From contig WQYP01000005.1 in NCBI GenBank assembly GCA_009781185.1, forward strand, positions 1-64,000: a DNA stretch of 64,000 nucleotides, given 5' to 3'. This document shows positions 21,352-53,461 of the stretch, piece by piece (position 1 is the stretch's first letter; the number at the start of each line of letters is the position of its first letter). The translations under genes were made by a program, and so were the position numbers. This DNA comes from Phycisphaerales bacterium (GTDB lineage Bacteria; Planctomycetota; Phycisphaerae; WQYP01). The notes beneath the pieces were generated by a model. It was given only the letters and a program-made list of their open reading frames with translations. It did no database searches and had not been told where the DNA came from.

Positions 21352-23103
21352 TCATACGTCAACGATCCTGAGGGTGCCGTCCGTTTCGAGGATGAACATG
21401 GTGGGGCGAAGCCTGGTGGTGGCCTTCACCTTCGCCAAATCCGATTCCAGCTTGGTGACGTCCGCTTCCATCTGGGCTTCGCTAGGCTCGGCGGACTGAC
21501 GGTGGGCCGGGGGACTGGCGACGGGATCGTGCGGTTTGAGAAGTGGGAAGAGCACCACGTCGCGAATCGATTGGCGATTGGTCAGGAGCATGGCGAGTCG
21601 GTCGATGCCGATGCCGAGTCCTCCGGCGGGGGGCATGCCGTGGCGGAGGGCGTTGATGTAGTCGTCGTCCATGCGGGCCATGGATTCTTCGGCGGGGAGG
21701 CCGGCGAGTTGGCGTGTGAAGGTTTCTTGTTGGATGACGGGGTCGTTGAGCTCGGTGTAGGCGTTGGCGAGTTCCATGCCGGCGATGTAAAGTTCGAAGC
21801 GCTCGGCGATGTGCGGAGAGCCTGTCTTCCGTTTGGTCAGCGGACAGAGCGCCGCCGGGTAGTCGTAGAGGAAGATCGGGCGGTCGGATTTCTCGAGTTC
21901 GGGTTCGGCGAGTTGTTCGAAGAGTTCGCCGACGAGGACGTCGTGGTCTTTTTTGGCGGCGTTTTGGAGGCCGCGGTCGGTGGCGATGCGGAGCACGGCG
22001 GCTTTGTCTTGCATGTCGATGCCGACATGCTTATGGAAAAGGTCCGCGTAGCTGACGCGATCGAACGGCGGCGTGTAGTCGATGATGCGATCGCCGTATT
22101 GGAGGTGCAGGGGATGATTATCAGAGCCGCGACCGTAAGGGAGCGACTGACTTTCCTGATGTCTTGCCGCACTGTCGCTCCCTGACGGTCGCGGCTCTGA
22201 TGGGAGTTTGCCCAATGATGCGAGTCGTTCCTTGACCAGGCAAACGAGGAGGGATTCGGTGAGTTCCATCATGCCGGCGAGGTCGGAATAGGCTTGATAG
22301 CACTCGAGCATGGTGAATTCGGGGTTGTGTGTGGTGTCGATGCCTTCGTTGCGGAAGTTGCGGTTGATGTCGAAGACGCGTTCCATGCCGCCGACGAGGA
22401 GGCGCTTGAGGTAAAGCTCCGGGCTGATGCGGAGGAAGAGGTCGATGTCGAGGGCGTTGTGGTGAGTGATGAATGGGCGTGCGGCGGCGCCGCCGGCGAT
22501 GGATTGGAGGAGTGGGGTTTCGACTTCGATATACTGCCGCTGCTTGAGGAAATCGCGGACGGAGTCGATCATCTTCGAGCGGAAGAGGAAGACGTCCATG
22601 GAATCGGGGTTGGCGAAGAGATCGACGTAGCGTTGTCGGTAGCGGAGTTCGGTGTCGGAGAGGCCGTGGAATTTGTCGGGGGGGGGGAGGAGTGCTTTGG
22701 CGAGGAGTCCGAAGCCGTTGGCCCAGATGGTGATTTCTTCGGTTTTGGTGTGTCCGACTTTTCCTTCGAACCAAGCGATGTCGCCGAGCTCGAGGAGTTT
22801 AGCCTGAGGCCAGCGGTCGGGGAAGTTTTGTTTGGCCAAGCCGATCTGGATGCGGGCGGAAGAGTCTTGGATGGTCAGGAAGATGAGTTTGCCGATGTCG
22901 CGGTAGAGGACGATTCGGCCTGCGACTTTGGCGGAGTCTTGGCCGTCGTGAGGGGTGATGGCGGGGCCTTTGTGCAGGGCGCGAGCCTGGGCGGCGGAGA
23001 GGAGGCCGTCGGTACGCTGGCCGTAGGGATCGATGCCCAAGGCGGTCCACTTCTGGAGCTTGGCGAGGCGATCCTTGTATTGAGGATTGTCGGAAGTGGT
23101 CAT
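21352..23103 (-). CDS. lysS: Lysine--tRNA ligase (class II) with an internal repeat-derived insert and a C-terminal extension
   Basis: OB-fold N-terminal domain, class II motifs ('FRNEGID','ELANAYTELNDP','GLGIGIDRL'). ATG at 23103 ('MTTSDNPQYKDRLAKL'). Confidence 0.9.
   Translation of the reverse strand: MTTSDNPQYKDRLAKLQKWTALGIDPYGQRTDGLLSAAQARALHKGPAITPHDGQDSAKVAGRIVLYRDIGKLIFLTIQDSSARIQIGLAKQNFPDRWPQAKLLELGDIAWFEGKVGHTKTEEITIWANGFGLLAKALLPPPDKFHGLSDTELRYRQRYVDLFANPDSMDVFLFRSKMIDSVRDFLKQRQYIEVETPLLQSIAGGAAARPFITHHNALDIDLFLRISPELYLKRLLVGGMERVFDINRNFRNEGIDTTHNPEFTMLECYQAYSDLAGMMELTESLLVCLVKERLASLGKLPSEPRPSGSDSAARHQESQSLPYGRGSDNHPLHLQYGDRIIDYTPPFDRVSYADLFHKHVGIDMQDKAAVLRIATDRGLQNAAKKDHDVLVGELFEQLAEPELEKSDRPIFLYDYPAALCPLTKRKTGSPHIAERFELYIAGMELANAYTELNDPVIQQETFTRQLAGLPAEESMARMDDDYINALRHGMPPAGGLGIGIDRLAMLLTNRQSIRDVVLFPLLKPHDPVASPPAHRQSAEPSEAQMEADVTKLESDLAKVKATTRLRPTMFILETDGTLRIVDV
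22121..22200. repeat. Family A palindromic element (tcagagccgcgaccgtaagggagcgac ... gtcgctccctgacggtcgcggctctga), in frame in lysS
   Basis: 27 nt arms with a 26 nt loop. The arms are identical to those of the copies at 47101 and 48508. Confidence 0.95.
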
Positions 23104-23231
23104 GGCAGTCCTGTTTTGGATGAGGAACAAACGCGGAGAATCATTGTAGGGCATTCGAGCCGCAATCGTAAGATTGCGCTATTGTAACCGCAATCTGGGG
23201 GGGCATGGCACTTTAGGCGGGCTATCTGACT

Positions 23232-30610: not shown

Positions 30611-30685
30611 AAACGCTCCCTGACGGTCGCGCCTCGGATTGCCCCTTACATTTGACCATCCGAGACGCGACTGTAAGGGAGCATT
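30611..30685. repeat. Family A-related hairpin with the arm order swapped
   Basis: 'aaacgctccctgacggtcgcgcctcgg' ... 'ccgagacgcgactgtaagggagc'. Followed by 'gagcttacgctcgcggctctga' (30700-30722). Confidence 0.7.
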
Positions 30686-47100: not shown

Positions 47101-47181
47101 TCAGAGCCGCGACCGTAAGGGAGCGACAGGCGGTATTTTCGCATGGTCACACGGGTCGCTCCCTGACGGTCGCGGCTCTGA
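47101..47181. repeat. Family A palindromic element (intergenic)
   Basis: Same 81 bp sequence as 48508-48588, including the loop 'aggcggtattttcgcatggtcacacgg', by eye. Confidence 0.95.
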
Positions 47182-47232: not shown

Positions 47233-48279
47233 TTATCGGTAGCTGTTTGCGTCTGGTTCCTGAACGGTGGAGAGGAGTTTATCGATAACGGCGTCGGTGT
47301 CGACGCCTTCGGCATCGGCGTTGAAGTTGGTGATGATGCGGTGTCGTAGGACGGGTTTGGCCATGGCTTGGATATCGTCGGTGCTGACGTTGAGTCGGCC
47401 GTGGGTGATGGCACGGGCTTTGGCGCCCAGGACGAGGTATTGTGCGGCGCGTGGGCCGGCGCCCCAGGTGAGCCAATTATTGATGAAGTCGGGGGTGCCG
47501 GGCTCGTTGGGGCGTGTTGCGCGGGCGAGGCTGACGGCGTAATCGACGACGTGGTCCGAGACGGGGACTTTTCGTACGATCCGTTGTACGGCCAAAATGT
47601 CGCTGGCGGTGAGTACCGGCAGCGGGTCTGTTGGGATGTCGCTGGTGGTGTTTTTGACGATGGAGCGTTCGTCCTCGCGGCTGGGATAGCCGACTTTGAC
47701 CATGAACATGAATCGATCTAACTGTGCTTCGGGGAGCGGGTAGGTGCCTTCCTGTTCGACGGGGTTTTGGGTTGCCAGTACGAAGAAGGGGGGTTCGAGG
47801 GGATAGGTTTGGCCGCTGGCGGTGACCTGGGATTCCTGCATGGCCTGGAGCAGGGCGGCCTGGGTTTTTGGGGGGGTTCGGTTGATTTCGTCGGCGAGGA
47901 GCATATTGGAGAAGATGGGGCCTTTGACGAAGTTGAAGACGCGTCGGCCGGTTTGGGTGTCTTCCTGGATGATGTCGGTGCCGGTGATGTCGCTGGGCAT
48001 GAGGTCGGGTGTGAACTGGATGCGATTGAATTTGAGGGAGAGGACTTTGGCGAGTGTGCTGATGATGAGAGTTTTGGCGAGGCCTGGGACGCCGACGAGG
48101 AGGCAGTGTCCGCGTGAGAACATGGCGATGAGGAGGTAGTCGATGACTTCGGTTTGGCCGACGATGACTTTGCGGATTTCGTGGAGCAGCGATTCGCGAG
48201 CGGCTTTCATTTTTTCGACGGCGGCCATGTCGGAGGAACCGTCGGCGTGGGAGGCTGCGGGGGGGGAAATTGGGACCAT
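47233..48279 (-). CDS. MoxR-family AAA+ ATPase
   Basis: '[14 protein letters not shown]' (Walker A), '[23 protein letters not shown]' (Walker B and sensor). Confidence 0.9.
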
Positions 48280-48507: not shown

Positions 48508-48588
48508 TCAGAGCCGCGACCGTAAGGGAGCGACAGGCGGTATTTTCGCATGGTCACACGGGTCGCTCCCTGACGGTCGCGGCTCTGA
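48508..48588. repeat. Family A palindromic element (intergenic)
   Basis: Direct duplicate of 47101-47181. The adjoining 48589-48635 segment ('ttatccggggcaatcgtctgattggccataaaaaatggccacaccc') recurs inverted at 63881-63922. Confidence 0.95.
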
Positions 48589-48677: not shown

Positions 48678-49706
48678 ATGCATATTCCGGATGGACTTTT
48701 GGATGTGAAGACGGCGGTGGCGATGGGGGTGCTCTCGGCGACAGGGCTGGGGGTGGCGTTGCGGCATGTGCGATTGCATCTGCCGGCGAAACGGGTGCCG
48801 CTGCTGGGACTGTCGGCGGCGTTTGTGTTTGCGGCACAGATGCTGAATTTTCCGGTGTTGCCGGGGGTGAGCGGGCATTTGATCGGAGGGATGCTGACGG
48901 CGGCGCTGCTGGGGCCCAGTGCGGCGGTGGTGGTGATATCGGCGGTGCTGATTGTGCAGTGTTTTTTGCTTGCTGATGGAGGGGTTCTGGCGCTGGGGGC
49001 GAATATTTTTAACATGGCGCTGGTGGGGAGTGCGGGCGGATGGGTGGTGTATTATTTGGTGAGTCGGGCGGTGAAGGGGTTGTTCGGGCGTGTGCTGGCG
49101 GCGACGTTCGCGTCGTGGGTGGCGGTGGTGGTGGCGGCGGTGGCGTGTGCGGGGGCGCTGGCGACGTCGGGGACGGCGAGTTGGTCAGTGTTGCTACCGA
49201 TGATGACGGGGGTGCACATGCTCATCGGCGTGGGTGAGGGGGTGATCACGGCGATGGTGCTGACGTTTATCGCCAAGACGCGGCCGGAGATGTGGGGCGA
49301 TGCGGCGGCGGCGAAGAGAAGCCAGAAGCCAGAAGCCAGAAGCCAAGAGATGGGGGGCGGGCAAACGGTGAATCCAACAGGAACGGAGCGGTGGGGGGCG
49401 GTGATTGTGTTGGGGTTGCTGATTTGTGTGGGGTTGGCGTTGTTCGTGGGGCCGTTTGCGTGCGGGTGGGATGATGGATTGGAGGTGACGGTTCAACAGA
49501 AGGGCGTGCATGTGTCTGAGGCGGCGGAGCATCTGATCAAGGTGCCGATGCCGGACTACAAGATGCCGGGGCTGGGAGACGGCAGAGTGGCGACGGGGGT
49601 GGCGGGAGCGGTGGGGACGGTGGTGGTCTTTGGACTGGCGTGGGTGCTGGCGCGGTCGCTGGTGAGGAAGATGAAACCGGCGGTAGATGTGGGGGGGAGT
49701 GAGTGA
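48678..49706 (+). CDS. cbiM: ECF cobalt/nickel transporter substrate component CbiM fused to a PDGLE-type C-terminal domain
   Basis: 'MHIPDGLLD' start and CbiM TM helices. C-terminal 'ACGWDDGLEVT' between two TM helices. Confidence 0.8.
   Translation: MHIPDGLLDVKTAVAMGVLSATGLGVALRHVRLHLPAKRVPLLGLSAAFVFAAQMLNFPVLPGVSGHLIGGMLTAALLGPSAAVVVISAVLIVQCFLLADGGVLALGANIFNMALVGSAGGWVVYYLVSRAVKGLFGRVLAATFASWVAVVVAAVACAGALATSGTASWSVLLPMMTGVHMLIGVGEGVITAMVLTFIAKTRPEMWGDAAAAKRSQKPEARSQEMGGGQTVNPTGTERWGAVIVLGLLICVGLALFVGPFACGWDDGLEVTVQQKGVHVSEAAEHLIKVPMPDYKMPGLGDGRVATGVAGAVGTVVVFGLAWVLARSLVRKMKPAVDVGGSE
49314..49349. repeat. 'gaagcca' heptamer array inside cbiM
   Basis: 'aagagaagccagaagccagaagccagaagccaagag', translated as 'KRSQKPEARSQE'. 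Confidence 0.9.
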
Positions 49707-49707
49707 G

Positions 49708-50457
49708 ATGCGGGCGGAATATCTGGATCGATACAGCCGATTGAGCAGTCCGGTGCATCGGCTTTGGACGGGTGTGAAATTGTTGGCGGCGGTGGCGGTG
49801 GTGGTGGTGGTGGTGTCGATGCCGCGGAATTTTTGGGGTGGGTGGGCGGGATTGGCGGCGGTGGCGGGGTTTCTGGTAGTGGTGGCGGCGATGAGCGGGA
49901 TTCCGTGGGGGTTTTTGCTGCGGCGGATGCTGTGGCTGGAGCCGCTAGCGATTGGCGTGGCGTTATTGAGCTTGTTGCAGGTGGGTGGGTGGCAGGTGTT
50001 TTTGTGGCTGATGGCGCGGAGCAGTTTGTGTCTGCTGACGATGCTGCTTTTGTCGAACACGGCGCCGTATTCGGAGCTTTTGCGGGTGATGCGTCGGGTG
50101 AAGGTGCCGACGATGCTGGTGACGACATTGGCGTTGATGTATCGGTATTTGTTTGTGATGATGGATGAGGCGGGGCGGATAAAGCGGGCGCGGATGAGTC
50201 GGACGTTTTCGGAGAGGGGGGGGGGGAAATCACGCCGTTGGCGGACGGCGGCGACGGTGGTGAGCCAGTTGTTCATCCGAGTGAGCGAACGATCGGAGCG
50301 GATATTCGCGGCAATGTGTGCGCGGGGATGGGGAGACGGTCTGAGCCGCGACCGTAAGGGAGCGACCCGTTCTAGCGCTCTGTTATCGCACGGTCGCTCC
50401 CTTACGGTCGCGGCTCAGATCGTCAAAGACAATAGCTCTGGGAACGAGGGAAGATAA
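49708..50457 (+). CDS. cbiQ: ECF transporter transmembrane (T) component CbiQ
   Basis: 'MRAEYLDRYSRLSSPVHRL' from the ATG at 49708, 2 nt after the cbiM stop. '..AMCARGW' lies near the native C-terminus. The stop TAA overlaps the cbiO ATG. Confidence 0.8.
   Translation: MRAEYLDRYSRLSSPVHRLWTGVKLLAAVAVVVVVVSMPRNFWGGWAGLAAVAGFLVVVAAMSGIPWGFLLRRMLWLEPLAIGVALLSLLQVGGWQVFLWLMARSSLCLLTMLLLSNTAPYSELLRVMRRVKVPTMLVTTLALMYRYLFVMMDEAGRIKRARMSRTFSERGGGKSRRWRTAATVVSQLFIRVSERSERIFAAMCARGWGDGLSRDRKGATRSSALLSHGRSLTVAAQIVKDNSSGNEGR
50340..50419. repeat. Family A palindromic element forming the 3' end of cbiQ
   Basis: 'tctgagccgcgaccgtaagggagcgac...gtcgctcccttacggtcgcggctcaga'. The stem position is A-T paired here. 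Confidence 0.9.
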
Positions 50458-51209
50458 TGACCGTGGCGTTGGAAGTTCGGGATCTCAAATATCGGTATCC
50501 GGATGGGACCGAAGCGCTGCGTGGGGTGACGTTTTCGCTGGAGGGCAGCGAACGGGTGGGGTTGATCGGGCCGAACGGGGCGGGGAAGAGTACGCTGTTG
50601 TTGCATTTGAATGGGCTGTTGCCGGAGGAATCGGGGAAGGGGGAGGCAGCGGTGTTTGTGGATGGGATGGCGGCGGTGGGGAAGCATTTGCCGGAGGTAC
50701 GGCGGCGGGTGGGACTGCTGTTTCAAGATGCCAACGATCAGCTTTTTTGTCCGACGGTGTTTGAGGATGTGGCGTTTGGGCCGATGCAACTGGGACTCAG
50801 CGAACAGGCAATGCGAGAGCGGGTGAAAGAGGCGCTCGAGAAGGTGGGGATGGCCGGTTATGAAGGGCGGCTGCCGCACCATTTGAGCAGCGGGGAGAAG
50901 CGTCGGGTCTGTTTGGCGGGGGTGCTGGCGTGCGAGCCGTCGATTCTGGTTTTGGATGAGCCGACGAGCAGTTTGGATCCGAAAGGGCGGCGGGAATTGA
51001 AGGAGCTGTTGCGTGGGATTGCGCTGCCGCAGTTGATCGCGACGCATGATCTGGAGTTGGTGGTGGAGCTGTGCGAGCGGGTGCTGGTGCTGGATAAGGG
51101 AACAATCGTGGCGGCCGGAGCGACGGTGGACGTGCTGAATGATGAGGCGTTGATGATGCGGCACGGACTGGAACGGCCGCACATTCTGCGGCATATGCAT
51201 CCGCATTGA
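50457..51209 (+). CDS. cbiO: ECF/cobalt transporter ATP-binding protein CbiO
   Basis: 'GPNGAGKSTLL', 'LSSGEKRRVCLAGVLA', 'LVLDEPTSSLD'. Confidence 0.9.
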   Translation: MTVALEVRDLKYRYPDGTEALRGVTFSLEGSERVGLIGPNGAGKSTLLLHLNGLLPEESGKGEAAVFVDGMAAVGKHLPEVRRRVGLLFQDANDQLFCPTVFEDVAFGPMQLGLSEQAMRERVKEALEKVGMAGYEGRLPHHLSSGEKRRVCLAGVLACEPSILVLDEPTSSLDPKGRRELKELLRGIALPQLIATHDLELVVELCERVLVLDKGTIVAAGATVDVLNDEALMMRHGLERPHILRHMHPH

Positions 51210-51211
51210 AA

Positions 51212-51427
51212 TTTGGTACCGCGACCGTAGGGAGCGTGGGGGAAAGTTCGAAACTCGAAATTCAAATCAAATTCCAAATTCAAAGTTCGAAGCTCGAAAC
51301 AGCCTGGGGGCGAATGGATGGTGTAGGCGGTGTTTCGAACTTTGAACATTCGAATTTGGAATTTGTTTCGAATTTCGAATTTCGAGTTTCGAATTTCTAA
51401 ACGCTCCCTTACGGTCGCGGTACCAAA
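51212..51427. repeat. Composite nested palindrome: family A-type arms enclosing a 'ttcgaa'-unit palindrome
   Basis: 'tttggtaccgcgaccgtagggagcg' (51212-51236) and 'cgctcccttacggtcgcggtaccaaa' (51402-51427) flank an inverted homolog of 5957-6110. Confidence 0.85.
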
Positions 51428-52242
51428 TGCTCATGACAGAGGCCGAGTTTGGCAGCGTAGGTGGCGAGATCAGGCGGAAGCGGGGTGCGGAAATGAACCC
51501 ATTGATGGGTGGCAGGATGCTTGAAGCCCAGGTGCGCAGCGTGCAGACACAGACGCGGAGGAGGAGGGTAATTCTGATTTTCGATTTTCGATTTTCGATT
51601 TTCGATTTCTGAATGTGGCACGGAGTAAATGTCGTCGCCGAGGACTTGGCAGTGGATGAAGGTCATGTGGGCGCGGATCTGGTGGAGGCGACCGGTTTTG
51701 ATCGCGACGTTCACGAGGGCGGCGGGAGGTTTGTTTTCAGGCGTTTGCGAGAGGACTTTGTAGGCGGAGATGGCTTCCTGGCCTTGGCGGGAGATGACGA
51801 CTTTTTTGATGCTGGCACCTTCTCGTTTGGCGTCGGGGTTGGGGACTTCGATTTCTTTGAGGCGGGCTTGGATGACGCCTTGTTTCGGGTGCGGGATGCC
51901 GGCGGTGAGGGCGAAATATTCCTTGTCGACGCGGCGGGCTTCGAAGTCGCGGCGGAGTTGGTCGTAGGCGTTAGGGGTTTTGGCGATCACGAGAAGGCCG
52001 GAGGTTTCTTTATCGAGCCGATGGAGCAGACCGAAGTCGCGACGTTGGCCGAGGTTGTGAAGCAGCTTGGCGATAAGGCCGTCGTGAAGGGCGAAGACAC
52101 CGTTGAGAAGCGAGTCGAAGGCGTGGCCTTTGCCGGGCTGAGTGACGGTACCGGCCGGCTTGTTGATGATGAGCAGATCGTTGTCTTCATGCAGGACGGG
52201 AACGAGAACAGCAGGATTGGGTTTGATGGCGAAGTCAGGCAT
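51409..52242 (-). CDS. RluA-family pseudouridine synthase
   Basis: 'LHRLDKETSGLLVIAKT', 'GRLHQIRAHM'. ATG at 52242 ('MPDFAIKPNP'). Confidence 0.85.
   Translation of the reverse strand: MPDFAIKPNPAVLVPVLHEDNDLLIINKPAGTVTQPGKGHAFDSLLNGVFALHDGLIAKLLHNLGQRRDFGLLHRLDKETSGLLVIAKTPNAYDQLRRDFEARRVDKEYFALTAGIPHPKQGVIQARLKEIEVPNPDAKREGASIKKVVISRQGQEAISAYKVLSQTPENKPPAALVNVAIKTGRLHQIRAHMTFIHCQVLGDDIYSVPHSEIENRKSKIENQNYPPPPRLCLHAAHLGFKHPATHQWVHFRTPLPPDLATYAAKLGLCHEHLVPRP
51576..51610. repeat. (gattttc)x5 tandem heptamer inside the RluA-family CDS
   Basis: 'gattttcgattttcgattttcgattttcgatttct', translated on the minus strand as 'SEIENRKSKIENQ'. Confidence 0.9.
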
Positions 52243-52278
52243 TGCACACTTCGGACGCAAGTTGGAGACGAGAAAACA

Positions 52279-52366: not shown

Positions 52367-53461
52367 TTAGTTGCCATCGGAGTGGCCCCAGCGGAAATGG
52401 CGGGCTTCGAGCTGGGTGATGAGTTGATCGGTGGTGGGAGAGGTAGCGAGGAGGTCGGCGAGGATTTTTTCGGCGGCTTGGTAGTCGGCGAGACCGGTGT
52501 CGTCGCCGGTGTGGTAGATAAGCGTGTCGGTTTGGGCGAGGCGGGCGGCGAGGAGTTGGAGGATGGTCATGAGTTGGCGGTCGCCGCCGTAGACGCCGCA
52601 GCCCCAAAAGCCGGTGTGGATGGTGATTTTTGGGAGAGCATCAGAGCCGCGACCGTCAGGGAGCGACCCCTGAGTTACCGCTTCACGGTCGCTCCCTGAC
52701 GATTGCGGCTCTGATGATTGTATTTTTGCGGCGGTGAAGGCGGTGGTGGCAGTAGTGAGGATGTAGCGAATTTGGTTGGCGGTGTAGAAGCCTTTGCCGT
52801 TAGCGGGGGCCTCGATGGCGATGATGTTGGAGAAGGTGGGTGGGTCGATGGTGGTGATCGCGCAGCGGACGACGTCGGCGGAGGCTTGGGCAAAGGCATT
52901 GCCGTAAAGGCCGCGGAGCTTGATGCGACGCTGGACGTTTTGAATGAGGATCGGTGTGGGCTCGCCGGACTCGACGGTAAGGGTGGAAAGGCGATCGTGC
53001 AGGAGGGCTTCGCGGAGGTGGGCGAGGATGGGATGCTCGGCGACCTGCAGTTCATCCTGGGCGAGCAGAGGGGAGGCATAAAACAAAAAGAGATCGCTGT
53101 GGGCAAAGTTGAGGTGCCACTCGATGATGTTTTTATTTTTATTTTTATTTTTCGGTGTGTCATAGGTGAAGAAATCGGGACGGGCTTCGGCGGCAGGAAT
53201 TTTGGCGGGGAGCGTTTGCGGGAGAGGCTGGGCGGGCCAGCGGGAATAGGTGAGAGTGCCGGCGTGGGCAGAGTTTTTCGGGCAGGCGAGGGCGTAGGTG
53301 AGTTGCTTGTTGGAATCTTGGAAAGTGAGGGGGAAGTCTTTGGCGAGTGTGGCGGCGTCGTAGGATTTGGTGGCGAGCGGTTTCATGACCGGCTCCGTAG
53401 TCGCAGCGGTAAACATCGCTGCGAAAAGAACAATCGCTAGAAGTTTGCAAATAACAGTCAT
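52367..53461 (-). CDS. Poly(ADP-ribose) glycohydrolase (PARG)-like protein with an N-terminal signal peptide
   Basis: 'HTGFWGCGVYGGDRQLMTILQLLAA' versus eukaryotic PARG 'TGNWGCGAFGGD..LK.L.Q.LAA' (recalled from memory). 'LNFAHSD...LLAQDELQVAEHP' versus 'DFANK.LGGG...VQEEIRF..NPE'. Signal peptide 'MTVICKLLAIVLFAAMFTAA'. Confidence 0.6.
   Translation of the reverse strand: MTVICKLLAIVLFAAMFTAATTEPVMKPLATKSYDAATLAKDFPLTFQDSNKQLTYALACPKNSAHAGTLTYSRWPAQPLPQTLPAKIPAAEARPDFFTYDTPKNKNKNKNIIEWHLNFAHSDLFLFYASPLLAQDELQVAEHPILAHLREALLHDRLSTLTVESGEPTPILIQNVQRRIKLRGLYGNAFAQASADVVRCAITTIDPPTFSNIIAIEAPANGKGFYTANQIRYILTTATTAFTAAKIQSSEPQSSGSDREAVTQGSLPDGRGSDALPKITIHTGFWGCGVYGGDRQLMTILQLLAARLAQTDTLIYHTGDDTGLADYQAAEKILADLLATSPTTDQLITQLEARHFRWGHSDGN
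52641..52714. repeat. Family A palindromic element, in frame in the PARG-like gene
   Basis: 'tcagagccgcgaccgtcagggagcgac...gtcgctccctgacgattgcggctctga'. The stem position is C-G paired here. Confidence 0.9.

Follow-up and report, generated by a model that had tools for sequence, protein, structure and literature searches.

How can a palindromic repeat come to lie within the last codons of a gene whose stop codon overlaps the next start codon, with the operon kept? The question is raised by the cbiQ/cbiO junction of the cobalt transport operon cbiMQO in a Phycisphaerales bacterium (Planctomycetota; GenBank assembly GCA_009781185.1), which lies in the stretch of DNA analyzed here (contig WQYP01000005.1, positions 1 to 64,000 of the forward strand; hereafter, the window). 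An earlier reading of the letters alone (the sequence-only reading) had proposed that a repeat copy extended CbiQ, the T component of an energy-coupling factor (ECF) transporter, without breaking the junction with cbiO, which encodes the ATPase. We find that the element is, judged by its sequence, an inverted dimer of class 3 repetitive extragenic palindromic (REP)-like units, and that it probably inserted into the last codons of cbiQ, where it is most likely tolerated and near-neutral and the operon is kept. The event is of an ordinary, known type and bears no sign of a special mechanism; the repeat family is published but little studied.

The CbiQ tail and the cbiO start in relatives

Beyond AMCARGW, cbiQ of the window is read through 41 further codons, GDGLSRDRKGATRSSALLSHGRSLTVAAQIVKDNSSGNEGR, up to the TAA at 50455-50457. 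A search of ~5.8 billion proteins returned 1779 CbiQ relatives, the closest of which is 84% identical. The best 120 of them were viewed for length; nearly all have 203 amino acids and cover 81% of a 256-residue query, a reading of cbiQ that starts from a possible alternative in-frame ATG upstream, at 49687, and in which the Pfam CbiQ domain comprises residues 20-217. Every one of the 13 aligned homologues (53-73% identity) stops one or two residues after AMCARGW, and both RARMSR and CARGW are conserved in this alignment. The Ala-Arg-Gly motif with the invariant Trp is therefore the C-terminus in close homologues, and the window's tail starts directly past this Trp; the homologues aligned all lack it, and no relative compared shares it without the palindrome. 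A scan of genome contigs with the CbiQ protein yielded no confirmed relative.

The DNA of the junction was compared in the contigs of the three closest relatives (L001-L003; 76-84% identity), all of which show cbiQ-cbiO synteny with collinear coding sequence on both sides. From the Trp codon to the cbiO start there are 5-13 nt in these relatives versus 125 nt in the window. Two of them have a four-base stop/start overlap (tgg-cga-caA-TGA-ccg in L002, tgg-aaa-tcG-TGA-cgg in L003), and their CbiO begins MTAALEVR(D/N)LKYRYPD. CbiO of the window begins MTVALEVRDLKYRYPDG as against MTAALEVRDLKYRYPDG in the relatives, which identifies the start codon as orthologous (shared MT(A/V)(A/V)LEVRDLKYRYPDG), and there is no independent start further downstream. 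In the window, the last A of the cbiQ TAA is the first base of the cbiO ATG (TAATG, 50455-50459), just as had been read from the letters, and the TGA at 50458-50460, in frame directly past this TAA, is the stop codon of the relatives with the ATGA overlap. Since homologues have no more than one or two residues past ARGW and relatives carry an ATGA or GTGA overlap, this comparison identifies the ~40-residue CbiQ tail as added and the cbiO start as the ancestral one. The earlier proposal that the operon junction is unbroken thus holds: the TAA/ATG overlap is kept, and cbiO starts as it does in relatives.

A separate irregularity is seen in the closest relative, L001, in which a run of nine Gs (1170-1179) lies at the cbiQ/cbiO junction with the old TGA out of frame, so that the cbiQ stop is shifted and cbiQ is longer by a few codons. 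This G run represents either a labile junction in the clade or an assembly error.

An inverted dimer of class 3 REP-like units

The unit from which the element is built has the consensus of a CnGA foot followed by GCCGCGACC-GTNA-GGGAGCGG; that is, an imperfect palindrome, CCGC-GA-CC-GTNA-GG-GA-GCGG, with a four-base foot 5' of it. The window unit CTGAGCCGCGACCGTAAGGGAGCGAC matches two entries, CCGAGCCGCGACCGTAAGGGAGCGGA (Legionella pneumophila) and CAGAGCCGCGACCGTCAGGGAGCGATCG (Solibacter usitatus), in Table S1 of Quentin et al. 2018 (BMC Genomics 19:475, PMC6006769), where they are given with the structure .....((((..((....))..)))). That paper sets apart, among the homologues of HuH-Y1 transposases, a class 3 with few members, the genes of which have REP-like units alongside in Legionella, Solibacter and Planctomyces. 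This supplementary table is the only published match; a full-text literature search did not find the arm sequences or the encoded peptides. The canonical unit folds as DNA into .....((((..((....))..)))). at -5.2 kcal/mol, an atypical weak hairpin as published, and the units of the cbiQ copy, which end in GAC and not in GGA, lose the outermost pair (-3.3 kcal/mol). Their foot is CTGA in both units, as compared with CAGA in the other window copies. Across 122 loci plus the window, 207 of 283 units have the CnGA foot, and the loops are GTCA, GTAA, GTGA or GTTA. Among 53 distinct variants, one pair of the hairpin shows 12 changes on both sides (11 of them CG to GC), a covariation score reached by none of 500 shuffles; this supports the structure without proving it, because the variants were hand-picked.

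The 64-kb window contains 15 occurrences of the arm motif CGCGACCGTAAGGGAGCG, with 0.11 expected by chance, and these are arranged as six hairpin pairs, one tail-to-tail pair and one split pair. No other copy in the window has the loop of the cbiQ copy. The boundaries of the copy were read from word depth on assembled Logan contigs of the termite-gut metagenome source runs, a measure that sums all organisms in the sample. Depth is ~1700 over the left arm, ~5250 over the right arm and 4-10 in the flanks, with steps at ~50341 and ~50420; it is 32-140 over 50335-50340, reaches its ~1700 plateau from 50344, falls to 0-10 inside the loop and is 9.58 from 50430 on, which is a single flanking contig. 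The mobile element in cbiQ is accordingly 78 nt long (26 codons, 50341-50418), and its loop and the 34 nt 3' of it are unique sequence by depth. The sequence-only reading had assigned ~38 added residues to the insertion; the addition itself stands, but the element accounts for 26 codons, and ~14 other extra codons (50332-50340 and 50419-50454) are unique and lie outside the repeat by the depth profile. The codons at 50332-50340 resemble the AGACAG stretch 3' of the Trp codon in L001. A target-site or tandem duplication of AGACAATGA was considered as the source of the 34-nt spacer and found unconvincing, the candidate copies being only about half similar. Elsewhere in cbiQ, a GGTGGTGGTGG run encoding VVVVVV (49781-49816) has a metagenome word depth of ~6700 and several alternative Logan joints; it is a simple repeat, also assembly-breaking. 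The plus strand of the whole window has a strong, sustained excess of G (33% versus 24% C).

Together with its flanks, the dimer forms a long hairpin. The arms (50335-50367 and 50392-50424) are 33 nt each and 97% complementary, with one G·T position; 27 bp of the stem come from the repeat and 6 from the flanks GACGGT/ATCGTC. The hairpin had been put at 27 bp, which is correct for the perfect, repeat-derived core (50341-50367 with 50392-50418) and too short for the full stem of 33 bp. The RNA fold of the region has -81.8 kcal/mol (z = -8.4), and none of 200 shuffles was as stable. The hairpin ends 32 nt 5' of the cbiO ATG. A Shine-Dalgarno-like GAGG (50446-50449) lies in the unique spacer, 7 nt 5' of that ATG.

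Reading frame and length bear on how the junction was kept. The cbiQ copy is read in another frame of the element than the lysS copy, as had been noticed before (SRDRKGA...RSLTVAA versus SEPRPSGSD...SLPYGRGSD). The cbiQ frame alone is open, since the two others run into a stop codon within the left unit (TGA at 50342, TAA at 50353); an open frame is a one-in-three outcome and hence neither statistically remarkable nor by itself evidence of selection. Foot-to-foot length is a multiple of three in 3 of 3 intragenic dimers of the window versus 0 of 2 complete intergenic dimers (Table 1). The lysS gene (21352..23154, minus strand) carries a 38-residue in-frame insert at residues 312-349, where Geobacillus LysRS (PDB 3a74) has three residues, and aligns to that structure in two blocks flanking the insert. 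In the PARG-like macro-domain open reading frame (ORF; 52367..53461, minus strand), the in-frame dimer encodes ...SSEPQSSGSDREAVTQGSLPDGRGSD..., and the Pfam match is ~25 residues longer than the profile. As lysS and the PARG-like gene survive solely with a multiple-of-three net gain, the net insertion corresponds, to within three bases, to the foot-to-foot length. With an insert that is a multiple of three in cbiQ as well, the TAA/ATG junction is most likely older than the insertion, and the overlap was kept because nothing downstream moved. On the sequence, the most economical reading would be that, before the insertion, cbiQ had the end ...ARGWGDG(I)VKDNSSGNEGR-TAA, overlapping the cbiO ATG.

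Table 1. Positions in the window of the cbiMQO genes, the parts of the cbiQ junction and the dimers with a foot-to-foot length
Feature	Position	Strand	Foot-to-foot length (multiple of three)	Basis or remark
cbiM	48678-49706	+		CbiM + PDGLE domains
cbiQ (ECF transporter T component), 249 amino acids	49708..50457	+		Pfam CbiQ PF02361, E = 5.7e-28; contig gene call = 249 amino acids
AMCARGW codons, invariant C-terminal Ala-Arg-Gly motif	50311..50331	+		13-homologue alignment; junction DNA of L001-L003
Three unique codons (GDG), from the family's usual end to the repeat	50332..50340	+		sequence; low repeat depth
Whole hairpin	50335..50424	+		33-bp stem, 24-nt loop; inverted-repeat search and RNA fold
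cbiQ dimer	50341-50418		78 nt (yes)	
Left REP unit	50341..50366	+		foot CTGA, then GCCGCGACC-GTAA-GGGAGCGAC; matches class 3 entries in Table S1 of PMC6006769
Copy-specific spacer	50367..50392	+		outer bases 50367/50392 pair; unpaired loop 50368-50391
Right REP unit, inverted	50393..50418	-		foot CTGA read on minus strand; word depth ~5250
Unique spacer 3' of repeat	50419..50456	+		I of the Q-I pair, then VKDNSSGNEGR; GAGG inside
TAATGA junction	50455..50460	+		cbiQ stop TAA 50455-57, cbiO ATG 50457-59, TGA 50458-60
cbiO (ECF/ABC ATPase), 250 amino acids	50457..51209	+		Pfam ABC_tran, E = 1.1e-28; N-terminus collinear with relatives
lysS dimer	22122-22199		78 nt (yes)	
First complete intergenic dimer	47102-47180		79 nt (no)	
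Second complete intergenic dimer	48509-48587		79 nt (no)	
PARG-like gene dimer	52642-52713		72 nt (yes)	

Several other identities were considered for the element. Integron attC sites, DNA uptake sequences, terminators and the terminal repeats of insertion sequences and miniature inverted-repeat transposable elements were dropped once the unit had been matched to published class 3 REPs; the terminator reading also lacks a T-run past the stem and any terminator-like match. The GTAG/CGTC-tagged REP families (PMC3733652) are ruled out by their 8-9-bp stems, 4-5-nt loops and different feet. Rfam gave no match at gathering thresholds to a known structured RNA across the window, and a permissive Rfam scan of 50250-50520 gave only a generic long-hairpin likeness to microRNA precursors, far below threshold. 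Pfam had no match in six element-encoded peptides.

The unit is spread across phyla. An exact 20-mer search, with one genome per species, found it in more than 119 stretches from Planctomycetota, Acidobacteriota and some Proteobacteria, the phyla named in PMC6006769. Among the matches listed are Planctomycetota (Phycisphaerae, Planctomycetaceae, Gemmataceae) and Acidobacteriota (Bryobacterales, Solibacter), as well as a few Gammaproteobacteria, a Legionella, Binataceae and metagenome-assembled genomes (MAGs) of Anaerolineae. Within these listed matches, the motif in Planctomycetota loci is found chiefly as hairpin pairs, the loops of which have 0-37 nt and no conserved sequence, and that in Bryobacterales loci is mostly single or tail to tail. 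One locus from an Acidobacteria MAG (L048, 1-220) contains a gene end, ...RYVVEEQGEPMAVFVGEML*, with the class 3 tyrosine motif YVVEEQ, a REP unit 13 nt further on and two partial direct repeats of the unit; this gene end and its units are likely the edge of a REPtron, truncated where the locus ends. It was also the sole match when the window and the 122 loci were scanned for NHVH...YV[VI]xEQ, and the window itself had none. A scan of the 122 loci for motifs of REP-associated tyrosine transposases (RAYTs) gave one class 2-like segment, inside the ValRS ORF of L069, and is uninformative on association.

Further copies were observed around the operon and beyond. Identical 79-nt dimers (47102-47180 and 48509-48587) flank a moxR-like AAA ATPase gene (47233..48279, minus strand), and the second of them lies ~90 nt upstream of the cbiM start. 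By the positions of the dimers, the cbiMQO operon has copies before, inside and after it. The split pair at 51217-51423 consists of a degenerate unit (51217-51236) and a good one (51400-51423), with ~165 nt of an AT-rich 'cgaaattt' palindrome between them, a second kind of repeat nested in the loop; the last codons and TAA stop (...VPRP*) of an RluA-like ORF (51409..52260, minus strand) come from the GTAA loop of a REP unit. At 30612-30685, degenerate units stand tail to tail, with feet inward, between a leucine-rich-repeat protein gene and rpsM, in the arrangement that is common in Bryobacterales loci. Copies inside genes were also seen in other genomes. The valS gene of a Phycisphaerales MAG (L069, 2-4114) has a single in-frame unit just before KMSKS (2828-2850), and the same ValRS ORF includes a ~170-residue segment with HVHLL...NPVKAG, which are class 2 RAYT transposase motifs; Pfam gives synthetase domains only (E <= 1e-5). 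A CCG-domain oxidoreductase (L073, 5333-5387) has two direct in-frame units (SEPRPSGSGNQSEPRPSGSG) between its Fe-S motifs, and single units lie in the inter-acyl carrier protein linkers of a polyketide synthase of a Bryobacteraceae MAG (L014, 443-464 and 1322-1343).

Probable insertion into cbiQ and competing explanations

In the mechanism that we favor, a class 3 HuH-Y1 (TnpA-Y1) transposase acting on single-stranded DNA would have mobilized the dimer, which, as a doublet like the REP doublets forming hairpins (REPINs), would have landed in the last codons of cbiQ. Having landed in the sole stop-free frame, it would allow cbiQ to be read through its 26 codons and 12 unique codons to a pre-existing TAA, with the cbiO start and the stop/start overlap left as before. 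CbiQ would gain a basic, poorly ordered cytoplasmic tail directly past the second Ala-Arg-Gly coupling motif, and the cbiQ mRNA would gain the 33-bp hairpin, the stem of which translating ribosomes would have to open. Since the hairpin lies inside the ORF, ribosomes finishing cbiQ would unwind it and reach their stop codon at the cbiO start, so that coupling can persist; we infer that the translational coupling of cbiQ and cbiO does persist, and the tail is presumably harmless to CbiQ. The insertion is most likely a near-neutral survivor of selection and not a device.

Several points weigh against this account. No class 3 transposase gene is present within the 64-kb window, and an empty site in a near-identical strain was not found, the closest relative being the 84% identical one. 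The exact sequence of the cbiQ site before insertion is a reconstruction, and the ~14 extra codons that are not repeat are absent from all relatives and have no explanation. The stretch AGA-TAA-TGA-CCG resembles CGA-CAA-TGA-CCG of L002, and the TAA could thus have arisen later from CAA, by a point change next to the old TGA. In both source runs, the Logan contigs are interrupted at the repeat and leave 50261-50334 uncovered, so that they give no independent check on the left junction. The neutrality of the insertion is an assumption.

A regulatory role is the first alternative: the hairpin might have been co-opted as an operon regulator, acting as an RNase III site that parts cbiMQ from cbiO, as a stabilizer of the upstream message or as a pause that governs the number of ribosomes arriving at the cbiO start. 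By analogy, palindromic repeats of other families are known to be RNase III targets or to change the abundance of the transcripts in which they lie (PMC10969869), and the stem at hand is very stable, lies within a polycistronic message 32 nt 5' of the next start, and is accompanied by a new GAGG in the spacer; the frame observed is, moreover, the one that keeps ribosomes running through the hairpin. That frame, however, is the one-in-three outcome discussed above, the GAGG and the cbiO ATG lie outside the hairpin in the predicted RNA fold and are not paired with it, and no promoter-like or terminator-like site was found on the cbiQ element. A search for RNA runs likewise gave none. Nothing comparable exists at the junction in L001-L003, and the other copies in the window sit at unrelated places (lysS, the PARG-like gene, intergenic), which fits random insertion plus selection. 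The analysis yielded nothing in support of the earlier suggestion that the hairpin could modulate cbiO translation, and we regard a regulatory function as unlikely.

The opposite concern is that the insertion is damaging. The second Ala-Arg-Gly motif of ECF T components lies on the cytoplasmic coupling helix that docks on the ATPase, and a basic tail of 40 residues might disturb the docking of CbiO, so that the transporter is impaired or being lost. The tail begins past the invariant Trp that follows the invariant Ala-Arg-Gly motif, at what is the C-terminus of every close homologue, and the length of the protein in the clade is strikingly uniform (203 amino acids). Against this, none of the ORFs of cbiM, cbiQ and cbiO is broken and their domain matches are full-length, and lysS, although essential, tolerates an internal copy of the same element. 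Distant T components of solved structure (EcfT, 4huq and 4hzu; CbiQ, 5x3x; PDB matches 4huq_T, 4hzu_T and 5x3x_Q) themselves carry 30-40 residues past the motif, and a tail at this place is therefore tolerated in the wider family. An AlphaFold2 model from a shallow alignment has predicted local distance difference test scores below 50 for residues 212-230 and of 60-66 for the putative last helix, which fits a poorly ordered CbiQ appendage. Damage to the transporter is thus improbable.

An assembly artefact, in which cbiQ and cbiO were joined through the repeat or the loop was introduced or mis-oriented, is very improbable. In its favor, the arms are longer than k = 31, and in both source runs the Logan contigs stop at the repeat, with zero depth over 50261-50334. 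Against it, the flanks are the neighbors expected from the synteny and collinear coding sequence of 3 of 3 relatives, one Logan contig extends from 50396, within the right arm, through cbiO and agrees with the window throughout, and the loop orientation yields an open frame.

Tolerated insertion of the dimer, which remains our preferred explanation, leaves knowledge of cobalt transport itself unchanged. The cbiQ/cbiO copy is, rather, a clean natural test case for the effect, if any, that a translated hairpin at an overlapping junction has on the downstream gene. For annotation, repeat-derived tails and inserts inflate the diversity of protein families and spawn spurious "hypothetical" ORFs in GC-rich Planctomycetota and Acidobacteriota, and recognition of the unit (CnGA + GCCGCGACCGTNAGGGAGCGG) permits masking or flagging.

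A broader possibility is that class 3 REP dimers in Planctomycetota and Acidobacteriota are a recurrent source of new peptide segments and gene ends and that the arrangement in cbiQ was selected and is not neutral. On either strand, a unit can be read without a stop in two of its three frames, and genic copies would be trimmed to multiples of three. If this were true, only translated copies would survive at overlapping junctions such as cbiQ/cbiO, where a 33-bp hairpin left untranslated would break the coupling to the next gene, and the near-perfect conservation of the 20-mer among phyla would be due either to constraint from one transposase family or to horizontal spread along with it. We consider this unlikely.

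Relation to known repeat systems

The closest known elements are the class 3 REPs (PMC6006769), with which the window unit shares a near-identical sequence, the 5' CnGA foot, high copy number and a weak hairpin in which two tandem mismatches interrupt the stem and the loop is GTNA. In its available part, that paper covers units beside transposase genes and their copy number, to which the window adds inverted dimers and in-frame insertion into genes; we found there no description of a dimer organization or of frequent residence of class 3 units within genes. In build, the element resembles REPINs, the REP doublets mobilized by RAYTs (Bertels and Rainey 2011, PMC3116915): inverted units with a short, poorly conserved spacer form one long hairpin that is present in many copies per genome. 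Canonical REPINs, however, have GTAG-type feet and class 2 RAYTs and occur mainly in Proteobacteria; as its foot is CnGA and not GT[AG]G, the window element is called REPIN-like here and is not filed as a canonical REPIN. Its partner enzyme, if there is one, would be of class 3.

Stable repeat hairpins between the coding parts of one operon are also known from intercistronic REP, Correia and enterobacterial repetitive intergenic consensus (ERIC) elements. Those hairpins are untranslated and their effects, which include cleavage by RNase III or RNase E and altered transcript levels, have been measured, whereas the cbiQ hairpin lies inside a translated ORF and is known here from its sequence.

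In-frame palindromic insertions in genes that stay functional were described for the Rickettsia palindromic elements (RPEs; Ogata et al. 2000, reviewed in PMC10969869), and intragenic GTAG/CGTC REPs are likewise inserted in frame, mostly in Proteobacteria (Di Nocera et al. 2013, PMC3733652). With both, the window element shares in-frame insertion, aminoacyl-tRNA synthetase genes included, and the supply of peptide segments, ORF ends and stop codons. RPEs are ~100-150 bp long and hosted by Rickettsia, whereas the window dimer has 78 nt, is found in Planctomycetota and is presumably unrelated to them in sequence; host phylum, length and class 3 REP identity set it apart and make membership in the RPE family implausible. 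The window is thus further evidence of a likeness in behavior between the class 3 REP system, which is little studied, and both the RPEs of Rickettsia and the REPs of Proteobacteria: class 3 units form dimers, sit inside essential genes (lysS here, valS in L069) and can supply the ends of genes.

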